The notes under the pieces were generated by a model. The model was given only the letters and a program-made list of their open reading frames with translations, ran no database searches and was not told the origin of the DNA. From contig OX597816.1 in NCBI GenBank assembly GCA_951406725.2, positions 154,318,001 through 154,382,000 on the forward strand: DNA of 64,000 nucleotides, read 5' to 3'. The stretch comes from Octopus vulgaris (taxonomy: Eukaryota). Shown here in pieces: positions 17,748-53,664 of the stretch (its first letter is position 1; the number at the start of each line of letters is the position of its first letter). The translations under genes and the position numbers were made by a program.

Positions 17748-20700
17748 TTAAGTAGCATATGTATTCTGAAGATTTTTATAGTGTTCATGTTGATTTTCAG
17801 ATACAGATGGAACTAGATTTCCTAAAGCTTCCAAAAAATCAGACTCTTCAACAGTTATTTTGGATGTATCTACATCACGACCAACTTCTAACTTTTGAAT
17901 GATTTTTTTTGTGGCATTCATCCAAGCATCTGATGCTAAGGCATAAAAATCAGCGCCAGTCAAATCTAGATCACATTTGTCCACAATAGACTTCAGTGAG
18001 AAATTACCAAGTTTGAATTTCCTTGTAACAGCTTGAAGTATCTTTAATTGTGTCTCTTTGTTTTTTGAAGCACCCATATAAAGAACTTTGTCAAATCTGC
18101 CAGGTCGCAGCAGTGCAGGATCCAGTAAATCAACACGATTTGTTGCACCAATAACAAATACATTATTTGACTTGTGTAATCCATCAAGCTCAGCAAGTAA
18201 CTGTGAAACAATACGGTCCATTACACCACCAGTATCTCCACTGCGACCCCTATTGGGGGCTAATGAGTCAAGTTCATCAAAAAAGATAACACATGGTGCA
18301 GCATCACGAGCTTGTTGGAATACTTTGCGTACATTTTCTTCACTTTGTCCAACATATTTGTTCATAAGTTCAGGTCCTCTGACACTGAAAAAATTCAAAG
18401 AACATTCTGTTGCAACAGCTTTGGCAATCAATGTTTTTCCTGTCCCTGGTGGACCATGTAAGAGTATTCCAGAACGTCTCAGACCAGCAGCTAGAAGTTC
18501 AGGACGCAGAAGAGGCAACTGAATTGTGTCTAAAATCTCTTGTTTTACATCACTTAGACCACCAATATCTTCCCATTTAACTTTGGGAATTTTAGGTGTT
18601 CCTAGTTCATCTGCTTGTGAGGCCTGTAAACTATCAAGTGCATTTTCAAAATCACAATGTTGTATGACTACACCTGAAGTACAAAGATCATTATGTGTCT
18701 CGTGCCATTTTTTGTCTTTAATTCCCACAAAATCAGTCACCCGTTTGTAGGCTTCTGCTTGTGCCCTTTTCACCAGATCAACTATATCCCCTAACACATA
18801 GCCTGCAGTACGCCGACTGATGTAAGTTGATGATACATCACCAGAAAAGTATACATCTTCTGTCAAATTAGTGAATATAATTGCACGTTCAGCTTCAGAA
18901 GGAACTTGCATTTTCATATGATGTAGAAATCCCTCTGGAATATTAGGTTGCAATTCTTGTATATTTTCAGTGGTCCCAATAATCAACATAGGATAATCTA
19001 AAGCATATCGCTTAGCTTGCTGCAGAATATCAACAAAAAACGTACCTATCTTCATATCAATGCTATGCTTTTCTGAGCGACCCAAAAATTCCAAATTTTT
19101 CAATACTAGAATGCATGGGGAATATTCTTTTGCTGTCCGAACAATATTTTTAATTTTCTCAATCATGGTAAATGGTGACATACTGCTGAGATCTTGACAG
19201 CTTACTTTGATGACCTGCAGACATAATGTTCTTGCCACTGCATCAATTACAGTTGTCTTGCCAACACCACTAGGACCAGATATTAATATAGTGGGAGATA
19301 GAATTTCTTGAACTTTTGCATCCAGTGTGTCATTAAGAAATGGTAAAATCAATCTTAACAAGTTTTCCACATAAGATTCCAGTCCAGCAGGTTTAGACTG
19401 ACACCAGTAAGGGGGTGAGTCATTGAGGAGATAAGGTACAAAGCTATGGGCAGTATAATTTTCTTTGAGACTTGTAGTTGTATGTTTTGGATGTACAAGA
19501 TGTCTATCACCATGTTCAAGGTTTGGTTTGATGTTCTCAACCTTAAGATAGAAAATCGAACTTTTTTCAAAGGAAAGGTCTGTCTGGGAGAGGCTACTAT
19601 TTTTTATTTTTATGCAGAAAATATCACCCTTTTCCATTAGACGAGGATATGTAAAATATTTTTCAAGTTCCTTAGAAGGTAAATCCTCACTACCAGGTGT
19701 TTTAATTAGGCTGAAAATGACCTTTTTGGCAATCACTATATTCCAGAGTTTCAAATTATCTAAAAAGGAATCGTTTGTTTGCTTTCCATTAACATTTTGT
19801 AGTTTCTTAATGACAATTGCTACACTTGTAGTAGGGAGGTGTTGTGGAGGTACTTGTATATTGAACAGCAGAATTGGAGAAATGAAAGCAAAGCGAGATT
19901 TATCATACCTCCTTCCAAGACACTTCACCATTGCCATCTTGGAGCGAACAATTGTGGTCCTTTTTGGAGAAGATTCAAAGTCATTTTCAAATATATCATC
20001 TTTTTCTCGGAAAAGTTCGACTTTGTTCCCAATACAATACACTTCAACAATACTACTGTCAAATAGTTTGTTGGCCAACATCAGTTTTCGAGACATGCAT
20101 ATAATATAGTTTGGATCAAATTCTTGATCTGAATCAGTTCGTATCATCACATCTCTGAGTCTCTTATCACCAACAATTTTTGCAGGTACCATTATATTGA
20201 TATCTAAACTGTTGTCTTTAGGCTTTTTGCTCCATGGACAGAAGGTTGAGAAGAATAAACTGTCTTTAGACAAACAATCCATGCGAGACCTGCGAGGATT
20301 TGAAGAACTAGTTTCCTCGTGTATAGTAAATATTTCAGTTTTAGCTGTTAGTAGACCTTGTCTAAAAGGACAACATTCAGTGACCACAATATGTTGAAAG
20401 TAGTTCGGTACTGAAGAATTAAGCTTTCCAGGAACCCATAATGCAAGAAACAAATCATTGGTCCGCACCAAAACACCATGTTTACATACTTGCAAAAGAA
20501 GATGACGAAAATCCAAGTTTTTTAATGCCTTATACGTATCTAAATCCTTAACAGACAAAATAACTTTCTCCAGAGGAAAGGGTATTATCCTTCTGAAAAC
20601 TATATTCTGTGATGGTTCCCAACCATAGTGTTGTAAAAACTGGTTAGTGCAATATAGATGGACTTTAGAGTTGATTAGGTTTGATTTTTCATCTACTTCA

Positions 20701-21165
20701 CTACCTTCGTCCAGCTCCCGATTAGTTGGGAATGGAGGGGGAACCAGGGTTTCATCAATAAACACGACACATATTAAATTAGTGTCTTCATCAACTTTAG
20801 GCTCAATATCTTGATCGTCAGGAAGGGTGAAATAAAGGCCCCCTACTGGTAAAGTGCTCTTCCGCACTTCTGGACGTCGGAAAGCAATGAAAAAATATTC
20901 ACAATCATTTTCTAACGACAGAATTGATGATGCAGTTTTTTTATCGACATTCAAATGAAGTGGGTGTTTCGTTAAAAAGGATTCATCTACGCCCTCGACA
21001 TTAGTGTTGTTTTGCTGTGGTGGTTTATCCTCCCGAGTAACAAATTCACCGAGATACGATGATTGATACATATTTTTTATAATCATATCCTTGATTAATT
21101 AAAAATGTAAATATGCAAAACAAAAGAAACATTTAAATTTTGCATTCTCTCACCTTCAGATCCAT
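17748..21165 (-). CDS. PEX6: Peroxisomal AAA+ ATPase PEX6 (peroxin-6)
   Basis: The 1112-aa ORF at 17748-21086 has two AAA domains. D1 has Walker A GPSGVGKT and a degenerate Walker B (ILVLKNLE). D2 has GPPGTGKT, IFFDELD and the PEX6-typical DSLAPNRGRSGDTGGVMDRIVSQLLAELDG. A probable 12-nt first coding exon at 21154-21165 (ATG GAT CTG AAG, good Kozak) splices in frame over a GT-AG intron at 21090-21153. Confidence 0.93.
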
Positions 21166-35867: not shown

Positions 35868-38800
35868 GTAAGTACAATTGTTTAATGTAAGCGTTTAACT
35901 TAACCGACGTGTTTTATGAGATCATTGCTAAAATATCTTGTAAGTGGCAAACGGGAGCTGACTTTACTGTACTCTTTGAGTACAGTTGTTTCGTGCAGTG
36001 AAATCCCATTCCACCATGTCGGAAATAAATCTTGTCCCCTGACTGATAAAGTCGGGTGAGGACTTGAACAAAGTATATTCCATAACTTCTCATAGTCTCT
36101 TTGACTATTACTGGGGAGTTAGACCATACTCGGTACAGTCTTATCAAGTGTTGTCGGTTTAAGACTGTATAGAGATCAGTATTTTAAAGTGTCTTCATTT
36201 TCTTTCAGCAATTGCTTAATGAATATCCCAAATGCTTCATCGTCAATGCAGACAATGTTGGCTCCAGGCAGATGCAGACCATCCGTATGTCACTCAGGGG
36301 CCATGCAGGTGAGAAAATTTTAAATAGTTTAATTTGTTTTTTCGTTCGCGTCTCAACCACATGCTTTGGGTTCAATTTCATGGGTTGCAACATGGGTAAA
36401 GTTGAAAGTTGTGTGCGTGTGTTGTGTACTATGACTTCGCGTGATAGTCGGTGTCACAAATAATTGTCATTCGTTTCCAATCTTTCATCGAAACTCATCT
36501 TCTTGGTCAGGGACAAATATCTTGTTTGGAAACGCGTGTGGTTTGGTGACTAGAAGAATGTTAATTGTCAGAGAATTTTATTCAATCTAGAAGGAAAAAT
36601 GAACGTTAAATTGGATATAAATTTTGAGGTGTGATGATGAAGTAACTGCTATTAAGTGTTCAGCTTTTGGCACTAGTAACCGAAAGGTTGAACCCACTAG
36701 TGTTTGCTGGGCGCTATGACAAAATGTAGCCAAGAATGGCTGTCTGAACACCCTATTCTTAATACTAAGAACTTCAGCATGCTTTTGATATTACTATACT
36801 AATTTGAAGAAAATTACTATACTAATTTTCTTTTCATCACATTCAGTTGTCCTCATGGGTAAAAACACAATGATGAGGAAGGCCATAAGAGGTCATTTGG
36901 AGCACAATGCAGCCCTTGAAAGGTAAGTTCGAGATTTTTTCCACTAAAATGCATATTGCCAGTTTCGATTTCGATGTTGCTTGGGTTATTCTTGATCAGA
37001 AGCAATCTTGAACTGGTATAATAATCCGGTCACTTTTTTGCCTTGTAGTTCTTTGATACTGGACACTACAACTTCCCCTTAAGTGATACAATTTTTAATT
37101 CTAAAATGTTCACCTTGTGTTCTATAAGGACGTGTCAATTAAATAATGGTATCTTTGATCATGCAGAAAATAAAGATTTACTTGCAACTATTGCATGAAG
37201 TTTTAAATGCAGATGCTGCTAAATTTGCAACCAGTGTGGGTTCAGACCGTCATTTTTTTTCTATTATAGCCTTGGACCACTCAAAACCTTGAGACTGGAA
37301 AGACTAGTCATGGTGTTTCATGCCTGTAAATGTCACTTATGCTAGCAGTGACCATTTCCAATCTCTTGTGAAAATTCATCTTAGCTATGGGGAAATAAGT
37401 GAAGGCTGGTGAATGGCAGGATGGCTGTAGAAGATCCATCTGTAATTCTGTTCTACCCATTCCTCAATGGGAAGGTGGTCTTGCTCATCCCCCACCTAAC
37501 AACCAATAAAATGCTGGATATAAGTACTGAAGTCAATTTTGTTAAAATCAAAATCGTAATCTATAAACATCAATAGAATTTGTAGCTCTGATACCAGTGC
37601 CGGTGGCATGTAAGAGGACCATCCGAACGTGGCCGTAGCCAGCCTCGTCTGGCACCACCTGTGCCGGTGGCACGTAAAAAGCACCCACTACACTCACGGA
37701 GTGGTTGGCGTTAGGAAGGGCATCCAGCTGTAGAAACATTGCCAGATCAGACTGGGTCTTGTGCAGCCTTCTGGCTTCCCAGACCCCAGTTGAACCGTCC
37801 AACCCACGCCAGCATGGAAAGCGGATGTTAAACGATGATAACTCCTGTGTTGCCCTAGCATGGCTGGAATATGAAATGAGTAAAAGATTTGCTTGATTAT
37901 ACAGTGTTGGTTGTAATGTGTTAAAATTTAGGTTATTAAACAAATACTTGTCTGTTGTAGGTTGCTACCACACATTAAGAACAATGTTGGTTTTGTGTTC
38001 ACCAAGAATGACTTGGCTGATATCAGGGATAGATTGCTGAATAACAAAGTAAGTTGATTTTCATTCCATCTAAACAGTGAAACTTTATTTTGATTGATTC
38101 TCATTCCCCTACTGATAAATTCATATTTATTTATAGGTAAAAGCTCCAGCTCGTGCTGGTGCTGTTGCTCCCTGTGATGTGTTGATACCTGCTCAAAATA
38201 CAGCTCTTGGTCCTGAAAAGACTTCTTTCTTCCAAGCTTTGTCTATCCCAACAAAAATCTCCAGGGGTACTATTGAAATCTTGAATGATGTCCGTTTGAT
38301 AAAGGAAGCTGATAAAGTTGGAGCTTCTGAGGCTACATTGCTAAACATGTTAAACATCTCACCATTTTCATATGGTTTAGTTATTGAGCAAGGTAGGTTG
38401 CGTATAATTTATTTTGCAGCCCTCAAGAATGATGAAAAAAAGAATGACTTTCGCTCTACTGAAAACTATGTAGATTCTTTATCACTGACTTAAGGGCTTT
38501 ATTTATTTAGTGTCTTGTCTGATTTATTAATTTTTTTGTTTATTCTTATACTAGTGTTTTTATTCTTATACGGTTAATATAAAGCGTTACGCCTTTCAGA
38601 AAATCAAAAAAAAGTGTGTAATAGGTGTAAAACAACTTCCTATGAACGAATATGAAAAAAAAAATGCCCGCACGCGAAAGGGGTGGGGGAGAGGACACGG
38701 AAAATTCACATCGGGAAGTTCCGAAAGCGTCTGAGGGGCCTCCCCGGGCACCAAAAAAAAATAGTGTAATATGTGTAAAACAACTTGCTCTAAACGAATA

Positions 38801-40824
38801 AAAATGCGCACTCGCGAAAGAGGGGTGGGGAGAGGCATCGGAAAATTTATATCGGGAATTTCTGAAAGCGTCTGAACCGGGCACAAAAACAAAAACAGCG
38901 TAATAGGTGTGAAACAACTTGCTCTAAACGAATATGATTAAAAAAATGCGCGCTCGCGAAAGGGGGGTGTGGGAGAGGCTTCGGAAATTTCCCATCTTCA
39001 GTCCACAGCCTTTAAACTAAGAAAAAATAGTGTAATTGGTGTAAAACTACTTGTTCTAAACTAGTATCAAGAACACACACTCACACATGAATCATAAACT
39101 CCAGGGGTACTATTGAAATCTTGAATGATGTCCGTTTGATAAAGGAAGCTGATAAAGTTGGAGCTTCTGAGGCTACATTGCTAAACATGTTAAACATCTC
39201 ACCATTTTCATATGGTTTAGTTATTGAGCAAGGTAGGTTGCGTATAATTTATTTTGCAGTCCTCAAGAATGATGAAAAAAAAAGAATGACTTTCGCTCTA
39301 CTGAAAACTATGTAGATTCTTTATCACTGACTTAAGGGCTTTATTTATTTAGTGTCTTGTCCGATTTATATTTAATTTTTTTGTTCATTCTTATACGGTT
39401 AATATAAAGCGTTACGCCTTTCAGAAAATCAAAAAAAAATGTGTGTAATAGGTGTAAAACAACTTCCTATGAACGAATATGAAAAAAAAAAATGTCCGCA
39501 CGCGAAAGGGGGGTGGGGGAGAGGCCACGGAAAATTCACATCGGGAAGTTCCGAAAGCGTCTGAGGGGCCTCCCCGGGCACCAAAAAAAAAATAGTGTAA
39601 TATGTGTAAAACAACTTTCTCTAAACGAATAAAAATGCGCACTCGCGAAAGAGGGGTGGGGAGAGGCTTCGGAAAATTTATATCGGGAATTTCCGAAAGC
39701 GTCTGAATCGGGCACAAAAACAGCGTAATAGGTGTAAAACAACTTGCTCTAAACGAATATGATTAAAAAAATGCGCGCTCGCAAAAGGGGGGTGTGGGAG
39801 AGGCTTCGGAAATTTCCCATCTTCAGTCCACAGCCTTTAAACTAAGAAAAAATAGTGTAATTGGTGTAAAACTACTTGTTCTAAACTAGTATCAAGAACA
39901 CACATGAATCATAAACTCCAGGGGTACTATTGAAATCTTGAATGATGTCTGTTTGATAAAGGAAGCTGATAAAGTTGGAGCTTCTGAGGCTACATTGCTA
40001 AACATGTTAAACATCTCACCATTTTCATATGGTTTAGTTATTGAGCAAGGTAGGTTGCGTATAATTTATTTTGCAGCCCTCAAGAATGATGAAAAAAAGA
40101 ATGACTTTCGCTCTACTGAAAACTATGTAGATTCTTTATCACTGACTTAAGGGCTTTATTTATTAGTGTCTTGTCTGATTTATATTTAATTTTTTTGTTT
40201 ATTCTTATACTAGTGTTTTTATTCTTATACTAGTGTATGACTCTGGAACTGTTTTTGCACCTGGTGTCTTGGACATTACTGATGATGATATCCGTAAGAA
40301 GTTCATGGCTGTAAGTACTTTTTTCATTTATAAACTCGTTGCAGAATGTTTAAAACTGCCTTCATCATGATATTCAAGTAATATATATATCTTCTTTGCA
40401 GGGTGTGACAAATGTTGCCAGCTTGTCTCTGGCTATTGGATATCCAACATTGGCTTCTATACCACATCTTCTTGTCAATGGCTTCAAAAATCTGGTTGCT
40501 ATATCTTTGGAAACAGATATTGAGTTTGAAGAAGCAAAAGAGGTATATTAGTTTTGAATTTTTTTTTTTTTTTTTCACTTGTTAAATCTGTCAATAAATT
40601 ACATCTGTGTTTTTATTGGATGAAACTATGAAAATGATTTGTATTTTCAGATCAAAGAGTTGTTATCAGATCCTGAGAAGATGGCAGCTGCTCTGGCAGC
40701 AAGTGCTGCTAGTACTGCTGCTGCAGCTCCTGCAGCTGCCTCTGCAGCAGAGGAAAAGAAGGAAGAAAAAGTAGAGTCTGAAGAAGAGTCTGACGAGGAC
40801 ATGGGTCTTGGCTTGTTTGATTAA
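35814..40824 (+). CDS. RPLP0: 60S acidic ribosomal protein P0 (uL10), 8 coding exons, 321 aa
   Basis: Coding exons are 35814-35867, 36209-36308, 36847-36922, 37961-38048, 38137-38392, 40234-40310, 40402-40542 and 40651-40824. All introns are GT-AG with consistent phases (966 nt total). The protein runs [36 protein letters not shown]...[19 protein letters not shown] at 40829. Confidence 0.97.
35903..36140 (+). ncRNA. SNORA73: U17/SNORA73/snR30 H/ACA snoRNA, copy C (RPLP0 intron 2)
   Basis: Almost identical to copy B including flanks. H box AAATAA, m1 and m2 present, ACA at 36135-36137. Confidence 0.9.
36209..36308 (+). CDS. RPLP0: RPLP0 exon 3
   Basis: tttcag|[33 protein letters not shown]|gtgaga. 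Confidence 0.95.
36628..36752 (+). ncRNA. SNORD22: U22/SNORD22 C/D snoRNA (RPLP0 intron 3)
   Basis: C box ATGATGA at 36634, D box CTGA at 36744 and terminal stem ggtgt/acacc. The central AAAGGTTGAACCCACT and the 3' hairpin plus TGTCTGA match recalled human U22 (AAAGGTGAACCCACT...TGTCTGA). Length is 125 nt. Confidence 0.8.
36847..36922 (+). CDS. RPLP0: RPLP0 exon 4
   Basis: [24 protein letters not shown] with canonical splice sites. Confidence 0.95.
36957..37093 (+). ncRNA. Box H/ACA guide snoRNA (RPLP0 intron 4)
   Basis: Hairpin 1 has stems ccagtt/aactgg and ttgctt/aagcaa. H box ATAATA at 37018. Hairpin 2 has stems tcactt/aagtga and ttgtagt/actacaa. ACA at 37088-37090. About 137 nt. Confidence 0.75.
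37580..37842 (+). mobile_element. SINE or RTE-related 3' tail in RPLP0 intron 4
   Basis: ggttggcgttaggaagggcatccagctgtagaaac...catggaaagcggatgttaaacgatgat. Related copies lie at 12080-12180, 56675-56780 and, reversed, 62660-62890. Confidence 0.75.
37961..38048 (+). CDS. RPLP0: RPLP0 exon 5
   Basis: [29 protein letters not shown] with canonical splice sites. Confidence 0.95.
38137..38392 (+). CDS. RPLP0: RPLP0 exon 6
   Basis: [35 protein letters not shown]...[12 protein letters not shown], donor gtaggt. Confidence 0.95.
38419..38497 (+). ncRNA. SNORD59: SNORD59/snR54-like C/D snoRNA, copy 1
   Basis: C box ATGATGA at 38429, guide AATGACTTTCGCTCT before D' CTGA at 38459, D box CTGA at 38485, terminal stem gccctcaag/cttaagggc. 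The guide matches recalled human SNORD59 (AATGACTTTCGTTCTTCTGA) except at two positions. Confidence 0.85.
38572..39098 (+). mobile_element. Single arm of a modular foldback-type transposon, copy 1
   Basis: Starts GGTTAA and contains three ~130-nt modules (gtaaaacaacttgctctaaacgaat...cgcgaaaggggtggggagagg...cggaaa). Homologous to arms 42657-43069 and 43820-44225. Confidence 0.8.
39099..39232 (+). pseudogene. Duplicated 3' half of RPLP0 exon 6 (pseudo-exon, copy 2)
   Basis: Identical to 38259-38392 at offset 840. It keeps the donor but not the native acceptor. Confidence 0.9.
39259..39339 (+). ncRNA. SNORD59: SNORD59/snR54-like C/D snoRNA, copy 2
   Basis: Same boxes and guide as copy 1, with a longer A run and one C>T change in the 5' stem. 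Confidence 0.8.
39397..39915 (+). mobile_element. Single arm of the foldback-type transposon, copy 2
   Basis: Tandem copy of 38572-39098 with scattered substitutions and small indels. Confidence 0.8.
39916..40049 (+). pseudogene. Duplicated 3' half of RPLP0 exon 6 (pseudo-exon, copy 3)
   Basis: Copy of 38259-38392 with one C>T change (CGT>TGT, R>C). The donor is retained. Confidence 0.9.
40076..40154 (+). ncRNA. SNORD59: SNORD59/snR54-like C/D snoRNA, copy 3
   Basis: C box at 40086, D box at 40142 and an intact stem. It lies about 80 nt upstream of the exon 7 acceptor, the usual position for intronic C/D snoRNAs. Confidence 0.87.
40234..40310 (+). CDS. RPLP0: RPLP0 exon 7
   Basis: (V)[25 protein letters not shown] followed by gtaagt. 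Confidence 0.93.
40402..40542 (+). CDS. RPLP0: RPLP0 exon 8
   Basis: [47 protein letters not shown]. Confidence 0.95.
40651..40824 (+). CDS. RPLP0: RPLP0 exon 9 (terminal)
   Basis: [10 protein letters not shown], Ala-rich hinge, acidic tail [13 protein letters not shown], stop TAA. Confidence 0.96.
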   Translation: MKELLSDPEKMAAALAASAASTAAAAPAAASAAEEKKEEKVESEEESDEDMGLGLFD

Positions 40825-49357: not shown

Positions 49358-50291
49358 TTATAACTTTTCGCCGAGTAAAAAATTACACTGAATCGGCCAT
49401 ACATACATACATATATACACACACACACACACATACATATACACATACACCGAGTAAAAAATTACACTGAATCGGCCATACATACATACACACACATTCA
49501 GACATACATATACACATACACCGAGTAAAAAATTACTGAATCGGCCATACATACATACACTCACACATACATACATATACATATACACCGAGTAAAAAAT
49601 TTCAGTTATCTCTCTTTCACACACACTAACAGAAGCACTTCACTTACACAACATACTGTCTGTCTCCCACACCTCATCAAATACACACACACATGTACAT
49701 CAATGCTTCGGTAACTTCAAAAGAAATTCCCTCGTCATAAAATCGCTTCCTCTTAGTCTCTTTCGCTCTCATTACTTCAAATGTTCCCGCAAGCCCATAT
49801 GTAAAAAAATTAAAGTTTTTTACGGAAATCATTGACGGAAACGTGCTACTACAAACGAAAGATCGCCAAATAATTTTTCTTAAAACGAAAACAAATTTTT
49901 TCTAAAGAAATTAAATAAAAATAACACACTACCTGTTTTTGGTACCCCCATCATACTCTTAAAACGTCGTTTTACGTTCTTCTAATAACTTTCAACCGAT
50001 TTTGTATGAACATTTGTTATAAGATCGACAAAGTTTTCGGAATGGTTCACCTTGAAATGGGTGTATTTTGGTGTCACATCTATTTCACCAAACCCATTAT
50101 TGTACGCACTCCAAATTTATTTACGTTGTTTAGAAAAAATAATTTATTTTCACGTGTTTACTGTGAAAATCCTTATAAATAATTTATTTTGTTTTAAAAA
50201 AAACCCCACCATAGGTAGTCGTTGTAAGATCGACTAGCCACGACTAGCTAGCGGGGATGCGCGCACCGGGACCACCCTTCTTAAATAGTAG
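49358..50291 (+). mobile_element. Non-autonomous Helitron/Helentron-like element with an internal minisatellite
   Basis: Four units of ccgagtaaaaaattacactgaatcggcc plus (CATA/CA)n at 49371, 49450, 49521 and 49588. CpG-rich body and a GC-rich 3' palindromic segment at 50230-50290. Confidence 0.45.
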
Positions 50292-50787
50292 GTATGTACA
50301 TACATATCTGTATGTATACATGCATATATTTATTATATATATATGTGTGTGTATATAACCTAATGGTTAGGATATTAATTCATAGTTAAATGAAAGCTTG
50401 GGAAAGTTCACGTGATAAGTGAAAGCAAATCATTTGCAGAAGTGAGTGTAAACTTTAGGACTGTTCACTTCCATATTCTAAAACATAGGAAAATATATTA
50501 ACAAAAGAAACAATAACAAATAAGACACCAAATTCGAAATAATTCCTAAAAATAAAATAAAACAACAGGACCCCAGAGGATACGTTTTATTAATAAATAT
50601 CAGGGTGTTTCACGAATGTGTAACATGCAAACTCAATTCACACACACACATGTATAAACAAAGTGTGTGCTGGCATTAAAGTGAATCTACAACGTACCTG
50701 ATTAATGTATGTAAAGGCCGAATGGAATGATTTATTTGTGATTATTTGAAATCTGAAAGAAATAATTACAATTTTTCTTTCATACAA

Positions 50788-51735
50788 TTAAGATGATTCT
50801 GACAAAGGATAGTAAGTTCTAATGCATTTTATAAATGACATAAACACCTTCTGCTTATGAGAACGTCGCCAGCAAAATTCTTGTAAATATGTATCAAAGA
50901 GATTATCTGAAGTTCCATGCATGTTGCGATATTTGTCTTTAAATTCTCTCCACGTTCTTTCTATGGTATTTGTATTAAAAGTTGCATTACGAGGATCAAC
51001 GAAGTGCAGATTGCAGTTTATGTCTGAGTGGTTTAACAGTTCTTGATAAGCAAGCCCGCCATCAATAATAATACGAGTCTCTGGCAATACATGCTGAGCA
51101 ATGATAGGCAATAAAGTGGAAGCATTTCGATCGGAGATAGGCACAAAGACACATCTCAGACTTCGGCGTTCTACCATTCCTAGCAACAAACGGTTTTCAT
51201 AAGGACCAGTATAGTGCTTGTGGCGCGTAAATTTCGTTTCGCCAATCTCCACAACCGTCCCTTCGCCTCCAATCTGCATTGCATTATCGTTACACCATAC
51301 AGCACATATTTCTCTAAAATAGTTATACCATTTAACAATTGCTTCTGGACCAATACCGACCTGCTCCATAACTACACGTTGTTTGCATTCAAATACTGCC
51401 CACCAATATATAAGATCTATAAGGCGAGCCAATGGGAGATGGGACCCAGAGAAGAAAGAATCTTGTCTAATACTTCGATAATGCGAGCATACATAGCACC
51501 TCCAAGCTTTTCCATCCGATGAAGTCGATCGAGTCATTAAACGCATTGGTTGATTACAGCACATTGCTGAATTATGAATTAATCCCAAAGAGGCAAGAAA
51601 GTTGATTGTACTTTCATTGTTCATTGTCATCGCATGAATATCCCGAAAAACGTAACTCTTTTCGGTCAGCTTATCAGCATCAATAATTTCATCTACAATT
51701 CTCCCGGTTGTTTTTCGTTTCACAGGGCCAGCCAT
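50788..51735 (-). CDS. Merlin/IS1595 (ISXO2-like DDE) transposase-derived protein, 315 aa, first catalytic Asp lost
   Basis: N-terminal Cys finger (CCNQPM...DGKAWRCYVC..RSIRQDSFF), then IGGEGTVVEIGETKF, VPISDRNASTLLPII, IIIDG, FVDP, TNTIERTW and YLQEFCWRR. The ORF is uninterrupted. Confidence 0.88.
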   Translation of the reverse strand: MAGPVKRKTTGRIVDEIIDADKLTEKSYVFRDIHAMTMNNESTINFLASLGLIHNSAMCCNQPMRLMTRSTSSDGKAWRCYVCSHYRSIRQDSFFSGSHLPLARLIDLIYWWAVFECKQRVVMEQVGIGPEAIVKWYNYFREICAVWCNDNAMQIGGEGTVVEIGETKFTRHKHYTGPYENRLLLGMVERRSLRCVFVPISDRNASTLLPIIAQHVLPETRIIIDGGLAYQELLNHSDINCNLHFVDPRNATFNTNTIERTWREFKDKYRNMHGTSDNLFDTYLQEFCWRRSHKQKVFMSFIKCIRTYYPLSESS

Positions 51736-51965
51736 TTCTGGTTTATATTAGATGTTTCTAAATAAACTTTCGATTTCCAAAAATACACTCAAATTTTAAC
51801 TGAGTTTTAGTCCACTATTGCCAAACATTGTTTTACTTTCACTTTATTAAAATAAATCACTGTAATTCAGATCATCAATGTTTATAATGTCAGTTACAAT
51901 TACGATACCTGTCATCTGAAGAAATCTTTCTGTATTCGTATATTAAGTCATGCAGATGCTTTATC

Positions 51966-52593
51966 GGCATTCCTTCGATATAACTCAACAACATTTGACG
52001 GTACAGTTCGGGTATCTTCGATGTAACTCGACAATTCTCTTCGGATATCTCCGTGACAACTGCTAAAATGGGAGGAGGAGAAGAAAGCTAATGGGTTGTG
52101 TGTGCGTGCGTGCTTGTTCTTGTCTATCTGTGTTTGTGTTCTATATAAAAACAGAACAGGTACACACACAGACAAGAACAAGCACTCACACACACCTCAT
52201 TAGCTTTCTTCTCCTCCTCCTCCCATTTCAACAGTTGTCACGGAGATATCCGAAGTGAATTGTCGAGTTATATCGAATTGATGTTTTGGTTTCGTCGAGT
52301 TATATCGAAAGAACGCAAAAAAAAAAAAATTTATTTTCACACATTCTACCAGTATACGAAGTTTAAACGTGTTTAGTTAACTAGAAATTGTGTTGAAAAC
52401 TGCCGTTCAAAAGGAAAAGATTCTGTTTTTGTTCAGCTTTCGTGTAAATCAAAAATGATATCGGTTTCACCATCTCATGAAAAAAAAAAGTTAAGAAATA
52501 GAATGTTTTTACGTAAATTGCCGAACACGTAGTTACATCGAAGATACCCGAACTGTACCGTCAAATGTTGTTGAGTTATATCGAAGGAATGCC
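51966..52593. mobile_element. MITE with perfect 63-bp TIRs starting GGCATTCC and an inner inverted repeat
   Basis: 51966-52028 is the exact reverse complement of 52531-52593. An inner IR pairs 52017-52103 with 52190-52278. A third end copy lies at 53246-53390. Confidence 0.8.
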
Positions 52594-52603
52594 TTTTTTT
52601 CTT

Positions 52604-53093
52604 TTGGCTTTCTTGAGAAAATTGTAATTTGTAAATTTAACGTAGTTTAATTTTTCGAATTTTAACCAATCAATCGCCTCTATTGAGCTAAAATCATTTG
52701 CTGCGTCTAAAACTGAGACAACATCCTGTCACTAACCCTAACTCTAACCCTAACCCTAACTTTTAGCCTTTCGTTTTTTTTCTTAATTGTTAAATTAATA
52801 TAGTTGTTACGCGTGTGTCTAAAATTATTCGTTTTGTTTTTGTTTTGAGATACTATTTTCCATTGCTTAAGAAAAAAAAAACGAAAGCAATGGAAAATAA
52901 TTTAAACAATTAACAAAATAATTCTATAATTTTATACACACGTTTCCCGTACGTAAACATAACAGTGACAGGATGTTGTCTCAGTTTTAGACGCAGCAAA
53001 TGATTTTACCTCAATAGAGGCGATTGATTGGTTAAAATTCGAAAAATTAAACTACGTTAAACTTACAAATTACAATTTTCTCAAGAAAGCCAA
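52604..53093. repeat. Inverted repeat element with 130-bp arms and a telomere-like tract
   Basis: 52604-52733 pairs with 52964-53093. A (TAACCC)n-like run lies at 52733-52760. Confidence 0.8.
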
Positions 53094-53664
53094 GAGAAAA
53101 AAATATTTTATTTTGACATATTCTACCAGTATACGAAGTTTAAAAGTGTTTAGTTAACTAGAGATTGTGTTGAAAACTGCCGTTCAAAAAGGAAAAGATC
53201 CCTAAAACACACACAGGCATACATACATCCTTTTTTTTTTTTTTTGGCATTCCTTCGATATAACTCGACAAGATTTGACATTTCACTTCGGATATCTCCG
53301 TGACAGTTGCTGAAATGGGAGGAGGAGAAGAAAGTTTATGGGTTGTACGTGCGTGCTTGTTCTTATCTGTGTCAATGTGTGCGTGCCAGCAATGTCTCAT
53401 TTTAAACTTGAAGGAAAAAAAGCTTGATTATTTGTTCCTGACCTGGGTGTAACTTCGGTATAAGTACCGGATACATTCCAAGAAAGTGTATTTTTATTAT
53501 ATTGGGGGTGGGGGGTGGCTACGGGTGGGAGAAAAGAGTTTCTGTTATCTTCAGAAATGTAAACAAAGTCACGTGTGTACTTGCACCGAAGGATCGCCCT
53601 TAACCTGCTTCATGTGTGTATGGAAAATCTGCAAATTTCCAAGCAACACGCATCAATTACACTA

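Follow-up and report, generated by a model that had tools for sequence, protein, structure and literature searches.

The Merlin/IS1595-type open reading frame on the minus strand of a 64,000-nucleotide window of the Octopus vulgaris genome (the window gene; residues are numbered on its 315 amino acids) is probably a domesticated transposase gene. This reading is supported because the gene is present as a single copy, has lost its transposon ends, has kept its frame, has a likely positional orthologue, has a polyadenylated-looking transcript, and bears signs of selection in its N-terminal half. On balance we think that a single-copy gene was fixed near PEX6 before the split from O. bimaculoides, with its N-terminal half conserved, and that its product would now be a non-cutting binder of Merlin ends that damps a younger Merlin family; if domestication is granted, end binding is the probable mechanism. 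Features are collected in Table 1.

Table 1. Features at and around the window gene (positions are those of the window).
Feature	Position	Strand	Basis
Coding sequence, Merlin/IS1595-type transposase derivative, 315 aa, one exon	50788..51735	-	ORF, Pfam, unbroken in aligned contigs
Residues 1-155: Cys zinc-ribbon (C59, C60, C80, C83) and helices, presumed DNA-binding half, probable purifying selection	51271..51735	-	Column conservation, decayed-copy comparison, predicted model, zinc-ribbon lead
Residues 157-297: RNase-H/integrase-fold core, apparently drifting; D225 and E259 kept	50845..51267	-	Predicted model, fold search, column conservation
Codon 165: Gly for first catalytic Asp; Asp in O. 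bimaculoides	51241..51243	-	Codon, alignment
3' UTR, AATAAA 50586-50591, likely poly(A) site 50572	50572..50787	-	Two contig ends, one T9 tail
Unspliced 5' leader with upstream ATGs	51736..52049	-	Contigs aligned to 51965
Sub-terminal remnant common to the window locus and the extinct sister Merlin family; TIR itself gone	51757..51857	-	DNA comparison with extinct-family copies
Palindromic repeat (51966-52593) and adjoining young high-copy inverted-repeat element (52577-53120), at likely transcript start	51966..53120	.	Repeat search
Solo arm, young Merlin-type MITE, outer end facing window gene	49478..49867	+	Arm comparison, genome-wide terminus count
PEX6 coding exon, synteny anchor, not part of window gene	17748..21086	-	ORF, protein matches

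The reading frame is free of internal stops and frameshifts, as the earlier note on this DNA had stated; its product matches Pfam DDE_Tnp_IS1595 (PF12762) at E 7.9e-17 (62 bits against a cut-off of 27) and is 100% identical to the public O. vulgaris protein over its first 296 residues. Of 117 family representatives, 105 have D at position 165, whereas the window gene has G (codon GGC), which agrees with the replacement of the first DDE Asp (VEIGETKF) already noted. The reported change of the VNH and HTQ/HTN motifs to INC and NTN was likewise found, as H241C and H254N, in columns where 86% and 75% of the representatives have H. The four cysteines, the second Asp, and the final Glu were said to remain, and they do (C59/C60/C80/C83, D225, E259); the triad thus reads G165, D225, E259 and is not intact. 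Three further changes in the active-site region (W183L, T224I, and W227G) had been missed. Loss of the first Asp from a DDE enzyme is expected to abolish metal-dependent cutting, and the window gene product should, judged by its sequence, be unable to cut.

The full-length predicted structure has a pLDDT of 92, and residues 157-297 correspond to the retroviral-integrase/RNase-H fold (best Z 12.9, rmsd 2.9 over 122 residues, in fold searches that took in the catalytic core only); predicted in isolation, residues 1-155 reach a pLDDT of 34. Merlin proteins are said, in the available text of PMC8101967, to be without the IS1595 zinc-ribbon domain; in contrast, this domain (PF12760) was weakly matched by 7/85 relatives here, and the resemblance of residues 1-155 to PF12760 clusters scored 0.92, which is a lead only. 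Taken with the four conserved cysteines and general transposase architecture, these matches suggest that the N-terminal half may bind DNA.

A protein search of the genome with the window gene gave 128 matches (126/864 candidates scored), none above 63% identity besides the gene itself. The next DNA matches were 66% over the full length or 73-75% over 250-400 nt (40/60 candidates scored), and the best other match to the 3' half was at most 75% (12/12 candidates); these candidate lists set lower bounds on copy count. Dispersed near-identical copies, which as many copies with TIRs and TSDs would have marked a mobile element, were absent among the matches listed, and the window gene is single copy and immobile. 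The 73-75% DNA matches belong to a decayed, extinct Merlin family, in which both ~65-nt terminal repeats were present in 5/10 copies examined. None of 38 matches to the family's 5' end is young (70-83% in long matches, and as much as 91% in those of 41-51 nt). In the tree, the extinct-family copies form a star with branches of 0.17-0.34, and the window gene is sister to the star, not inside it. Of 30 extinct-family loci tried, 21 were aligned, the other nine scoring too low and being dropped; over 7,899 nt, the aligned loci have accumulated 129 frameshifts and 66 stops. Elsewhere in the 64-kb window, transposase remnants were seen as partial HTH matches.

When ten natural arms of the extinct family were compared with both flanks of the window gene, all scored at the level of shuffled sequence, bar one sub-terminal match. 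No flanking TIR pair with a TSD was found in 8 kb on each side, and an 8-9 bp TSD was absent in the best 15 of 21 GG..CC pairings flanking the gene, although decay could erase one. The earlier claim that no TIR is visible downstream therefore holds for the gene's own TIR, but the solo arm of another element, a young Merlin-type MITE, is present there (Table 1). This arm was considered as the gene's TIR and rejected because its orientation is wrong: its outer end, at 49867, points toward the gene.

Young Merlin elements are nevertheless present in the genome. The proteins of one young family are 58-60% identical to the window gene product and come from intact DDE ORFs, and a full-length element (C16, from 25033338) is ~9 kb long; its 353-bp TIRs are 97% identical, and its 8-bp TSD is perfect. 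That element sits among Ty3/gypsy-like remnants and carries a LINE-like ORF inside; a second multi-copy Merlin family with intact DDE occupies loci L019-L026. Two Merlin families with 11 recently active insertions are described in the available text of PMC13282606. The 13-nt terminus GGCGATGTTTCGT is common to the extinct and young families, and the MITE family terminus has one base different within this stretch; a pattern covering the MITE and young-family terminus gave 96 exact matches genome-wide, with a control of 0.

The O. bimaculoides protein XP_014781859.1 is 80.8% identical to the window gene product and is its sister in the tree (support 100/99). Its accession is consecutive with that of O. 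bimaculoides PEX6 (XP_014781860.1), and in the window PEX6 lies 30 kb from the window gene, with RPLP0 between them; PEX6 itself is 98.7% identical between the two species. The O. bimaculoides synteny is that of accession order, not DNA, and a second numbering appears to be derived from the same annotation; on this good, if indirect, evidence XP_014781859.1 is likely the positional orthologue. A candidate for the syntenic orthologue sought in other cephalopods was thus seen in O. bimaculoides by accession order, whereas no Argonauta, squid, or O. sinensis protein surfaced for the window gene in a word-limited, annotation-dependent search (10 hits and controls named), in which Argonauta PEX6 did. 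XP_014781859.1 keeps D165, W183, W227, H241, and H254, and its triad is D, D, E. Because this sister keeps the Asp, D165G was not the founding event of domestication; most likely the gene was immobilized with its triad intact, and D165G would have come later, on the O. vulgaris lineage. The two species split ~34 My ago (10.1101/2023.05.16.540928, in the text available) or 13.3-33.5 My ago (PMC13282606, in the available text, where the neutral rate is put at 0.0036 per My). As to the neighboring genes themselves, PEX6 occupies a single unbroken 3.3-kb ORF and may have a tiny exon upstream of it. RPLP0 exons lie at 36188-40147 (+), and a portion of one of them is found three times (38137, 39091, and 39908), one copy with a substitution, reflecting either tandem exon duplication or an assembly artefact.

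At the rate of the extinct family, ~23 frame breaks are expected in 945 nt, and none was seen in the window gene, despite similar divergence at fourfold sites (3/23, a small sample, versus 33/252 in the extinct copies). Counted since the split in both lineages together, 9-29 breaks are expected and none was seen (P <= 9e-5); stops alone give P 0.04 at the youngest split date. The frame has been kept far beyond neutral expectation. Over residues 1-155, the two species differ at 1/37 conserved versus 19/96 variable columns (p 0.013; permutation p<5e-5), and over residues 156-315 at 15/72 versus 19/83 (p 0.85; permutation p 0.28). Against the extinct copies, 3/34 conserved codons of the N-terminal half have changed, compared with a rate of 0.297 (p 0.0035), whereas its variable codons changed at about the neutral rate (19/69 versus 0.345). 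These comparisons support purifying selection confined to the N-terminal half, with the catalytic half apparently drifting.

A dN/dS check had been proposed at the outset; selection was visible as the sparing of conserved N-half columns but not in the C-terminal half or in plain pN/pS against the extinct copies, which for the N half was no lower than in decayed copies (0.127/0.195 versus 0.135/0.198). Under neutrality, a protein identity of 81% would be expected after 13.3 My, no different from the 80.8% observed, and one of 60%, well below it, after 33.5 My; overall constraint on the protein sequence is evidently weak. Since the window gene is sister to the extinct-family star and not inside it, part of its conserved-site signal may predate domestication and date from life as an active transposase.

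The stretch of the window gene is contained in 20 of the 24 sequencing runs listed, all of them RNA by guess if at all, none being on record as such. Contigs were aligned from four: X2 and X11 (guessed RNA, from two studies and two organism codes), X15 (of DNA size), and X21. X2 and X11 gave one contig each, covering the window from 50573 or 50572 past 51965 without a single difference or gap, and the X11 contig ends in nine untemplated T, 14 nt past the AATAAA at 50586-50591; X15 continues past this end. X21 (organism D) gave just 18-nt matches at 80% likeness and was uninformative. In the long contigs of all three covering runs (3/3), the ORF has the same sequence. A word share of 0.85 in many small runs, two of which were among those aligned, fits an end at 50572 (0.855 expected; 0.74 if spliced). 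The transcript reads as polyadenylated and unspliced, with the runs taken as RNA by guess.

Both AATAAA sites, at 50586 and 50731, had been put forward as signals; the first is indeed followed by the contig ends and the T9 tail, whereas the contigs run straight through the second. The 5' UTR intron proposed at 51758-51908 has its GT..AG, but 2/2 covering contigs cross it unspliced; contigs drop minor forms and could miss a rare spliced one. Nor does the proposed intron count as a host-gene feature, because 51757-51857 is ancestral sub-terminal transposon DNA. The check on splicing thus yielded a transcript with a poly(A)-like end and no intron. A spliced C-terminus in the public gene model (exon at ~50749) was not seen in the aligned contigs either. 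Upstream, the contigs run 84 and 138 nt beyond 51965, to ~52049 and ~52103 if colinear, and the unspliced leader contains six upstream ATGs. The palindrome at 51966-52593 has 63-nt arms that are 100% identical, and only one other locus, at 82%, was among the hits listed.

The following course of events would account for these observations. An old Merlin copy may have become fixed near PEX6, with its triad intact, before O. vulgaris and O. bimaculoides split; its cutting half would then have drifted, and D165G on the O. vulgaris lineage would have yielded a non-cutting protein. The N-terminal zinc-ribbon half may still read the 13-nt terminus GGCGATGTTTCGT, and occupied ends, or a dead subunit in transposase multimers, would lead to less transposition of the young Merlin family; binding at dispersed ends could also regulate nearby genes. 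Any such host function is putative. Co-option of transposases for DNA binding and for TE repression is noted in the available text of PMC8101967. The earlier note had suggested an exapted DNA-binding protein: domestication stands, whereas neither the D>G change as its founding event nor the spliced 5' intron does.

The preferred account has to be weighed against others. It is possible, though we consider it improbable, that the gene was kept for cutting, as the intact triad of O. bimaculoides would allow, and that in the O. vulgaris lineage it is on its way out, its frame as yet unbroken. Against the preferred account stands a window gene branch three times longer than that of O. bimaculoides (0.18 versus 0.063). 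When changes were polarized per branch by column-wise outgroup counts, 17 of 22 on the window gene branch fell in the catalytic half (5 N + 17 C, versus 12 N + 5 C in O. bimaculoides, with 21 unpolarized; Fisher p 0.004). Conserved C-half columns were departed from seven times by the window gene and once by O. bimaculoides (p 0.07), and under neutrality the C half would stay unbroken on one lineage with a probability of 0.09 at 13.3 My, all of which would suit a dying gene. Such a gene would nonetheless have to have changed less in its N half than the O. bimaculoides gene (5 versus 12) and to have lost there no conserved residue that O. bimaculoides kept; moreover, the neutral probability of a whole intact frame on one lineage is <= 0.01, the ORF is identical in 3/3 covering runs, and the transcript end is precise.

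Scarcely different in our estimate, and also unlikely, is that the product is a domesticated host transcription or chromatin factor with targets or partners unrelated to present Merlin ends. The same evidence for domestication applies to it; in addition, the near-neutral variable positions of the N half mean that specificity could have shifted, and the young transposase is only 58% identical. However, the terminal 13 nt are the same in the old and young families, so that the ancestral site remains plentiful and offers the simplest target. There is little prospect that the gene is an immobile source transposase persisting by mobilizing MITEs in trans, with no host benefit. O. bimaculoides does keep the DDE, and young MITEs with a near-identical terminus exist; an immobile copy, however, gains nothing by moving other elements, autonomous young copies with intact DDE can do the job, the extinct family's own ends are without young copies (38/38 candidates), and the window gene copy is not expected to cut. 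An ordinary recent Merlin insertion with chance mutations, conceivable only in that young Merlin families are present in the genome, is largely refuted by the want of a close copy or a TIR/TSD, by the sister protein beside PEX6 in O. bimaculoides, and by divergence like that of old copies.

Other Merlin-derived genes were met in the same genome. Two intact paralogues, at C12:76504219-76505159 and C12:79976192-79977132, are 91% identical in DNA, with no closer kin, and have Ala for the first Asp in both members. They have one-to-one O. bimaculoides partners at 95.5% and 97.9%, and dN/dS between the pair is 0.21; H254N is common to both and the window gene, and W183L to one member. This pair is a cleaner and stronger domestication candidate than the window gene. 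In the region of C24:13119368-13119841, an open 191-aa Merlin ORF has kept the zinc-ribbon half and the C-terminal helix and has its catalytic core deleted in frame; no orthologue of it was found. An intact, distant Merlin ORF at C7:30422548-30423492 has Gly for the first Asp (VELGESKF). A Merlin-type terminal arm faces the C7 ORF, as is also the case at locus L011 and at the window gene.

A broader and more speculative reading would be that Merlin transposases have been tamed repeatedly in octopus, giving rise to a few end-binding repressors (the window gene, the C12 pair, and the copies on C24 and C7), the window gene being caught in mid-conversion. Tentatively, the O. bimaculoides form would then be armed still, and disarming would have occurred in O. 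vulgaris, where a young family with the same terminus is spreading; disarming could, just as tentatively, have proceeded via partly the same substitutions (first Asp, W183L, and H254N).

Whichever reading is taken, nature supplies here two orthologues, of which one is armed and the other disarmed; dead relatives serve as the neutral control, and the young family is a candidate target. Two questions can thereby be put to a direct test: whether domestication begins as a defence against transposons, and whether catalysis is lost after domestication and not as its founding step. New regulators are known to arise from domesticated transposases.

In CENP-B, SETMAR, THAP, and ZBED, the host keeps the end-binding module of a transposase, and SETMAR binds the ends of its parent element. 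These proteins differ from the window gene in that they come from other superfamilies and are far older or fused. Mobile Merlin/IS1595 elements (PF12762; PMC8101967, in the available text) share with it the DDE_Tnp_IS1595 domain, a length of ~310 aa, and an integrase-like core, and its sister families in O. vulgaris have GG..CC TIRs, one with an 8-bp TSD. Unlike them, the window gene is single copy, has no TIR/TSD, has lost the first Asp, has changed active-site neighbors, and likely occupies a fixed locus in two species.

In the literature searched, which most subscription journals lie outside, no animal gene derived from the Merlin superfamily was found, and Merlin domestication in print was found for protists only. 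The available text of PMC8101967 gives candidates in Stentor, Symbiodinium, Perkinsela, and Bodo; like the window gene, these have preserved ORFs without TIRs/TSDs and sometimes an altered DDE, with synteny in Stentor, and they appear in that portion of the paper without a selection test. The present case differs in being from an animal; in addition, decayed relatives provide it with a neutral control, selection is resolved by domain, and the end of a transcript is seen. The same source, as far as available, counts 191 Merlin-like proteins in O. bimaculoides and calls none domesticated; its appendix lists O. bimaculoides Merlin proteins, and XP_014781859.1 may be among them. Merlin, IS1595, and ISXO2 are unmentioned in the available part of a survey of octopus TE-derived factor families (PMC10027918), and the corresponding part of PMC9004415 lists Merlin as fossils only.

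The nearest parallel is LOC26532114 of the Drosophila obscura group, a recently domesticated Tc1/mariner gene (PMC13548663, in the text available). It, too, is lineage-restricted, with its DNA-binding half kept, its catalytic half decayed, and mild constraint (its dN/dS is 0.7). It belongs to another superfamily and gained a spliced 5' UTR intron, whereas the intron proposed for the window gene was not seen spliced in the covering contigs; and, in contrast to LOC26532114, the orthologue of the window gene still has its DDE.
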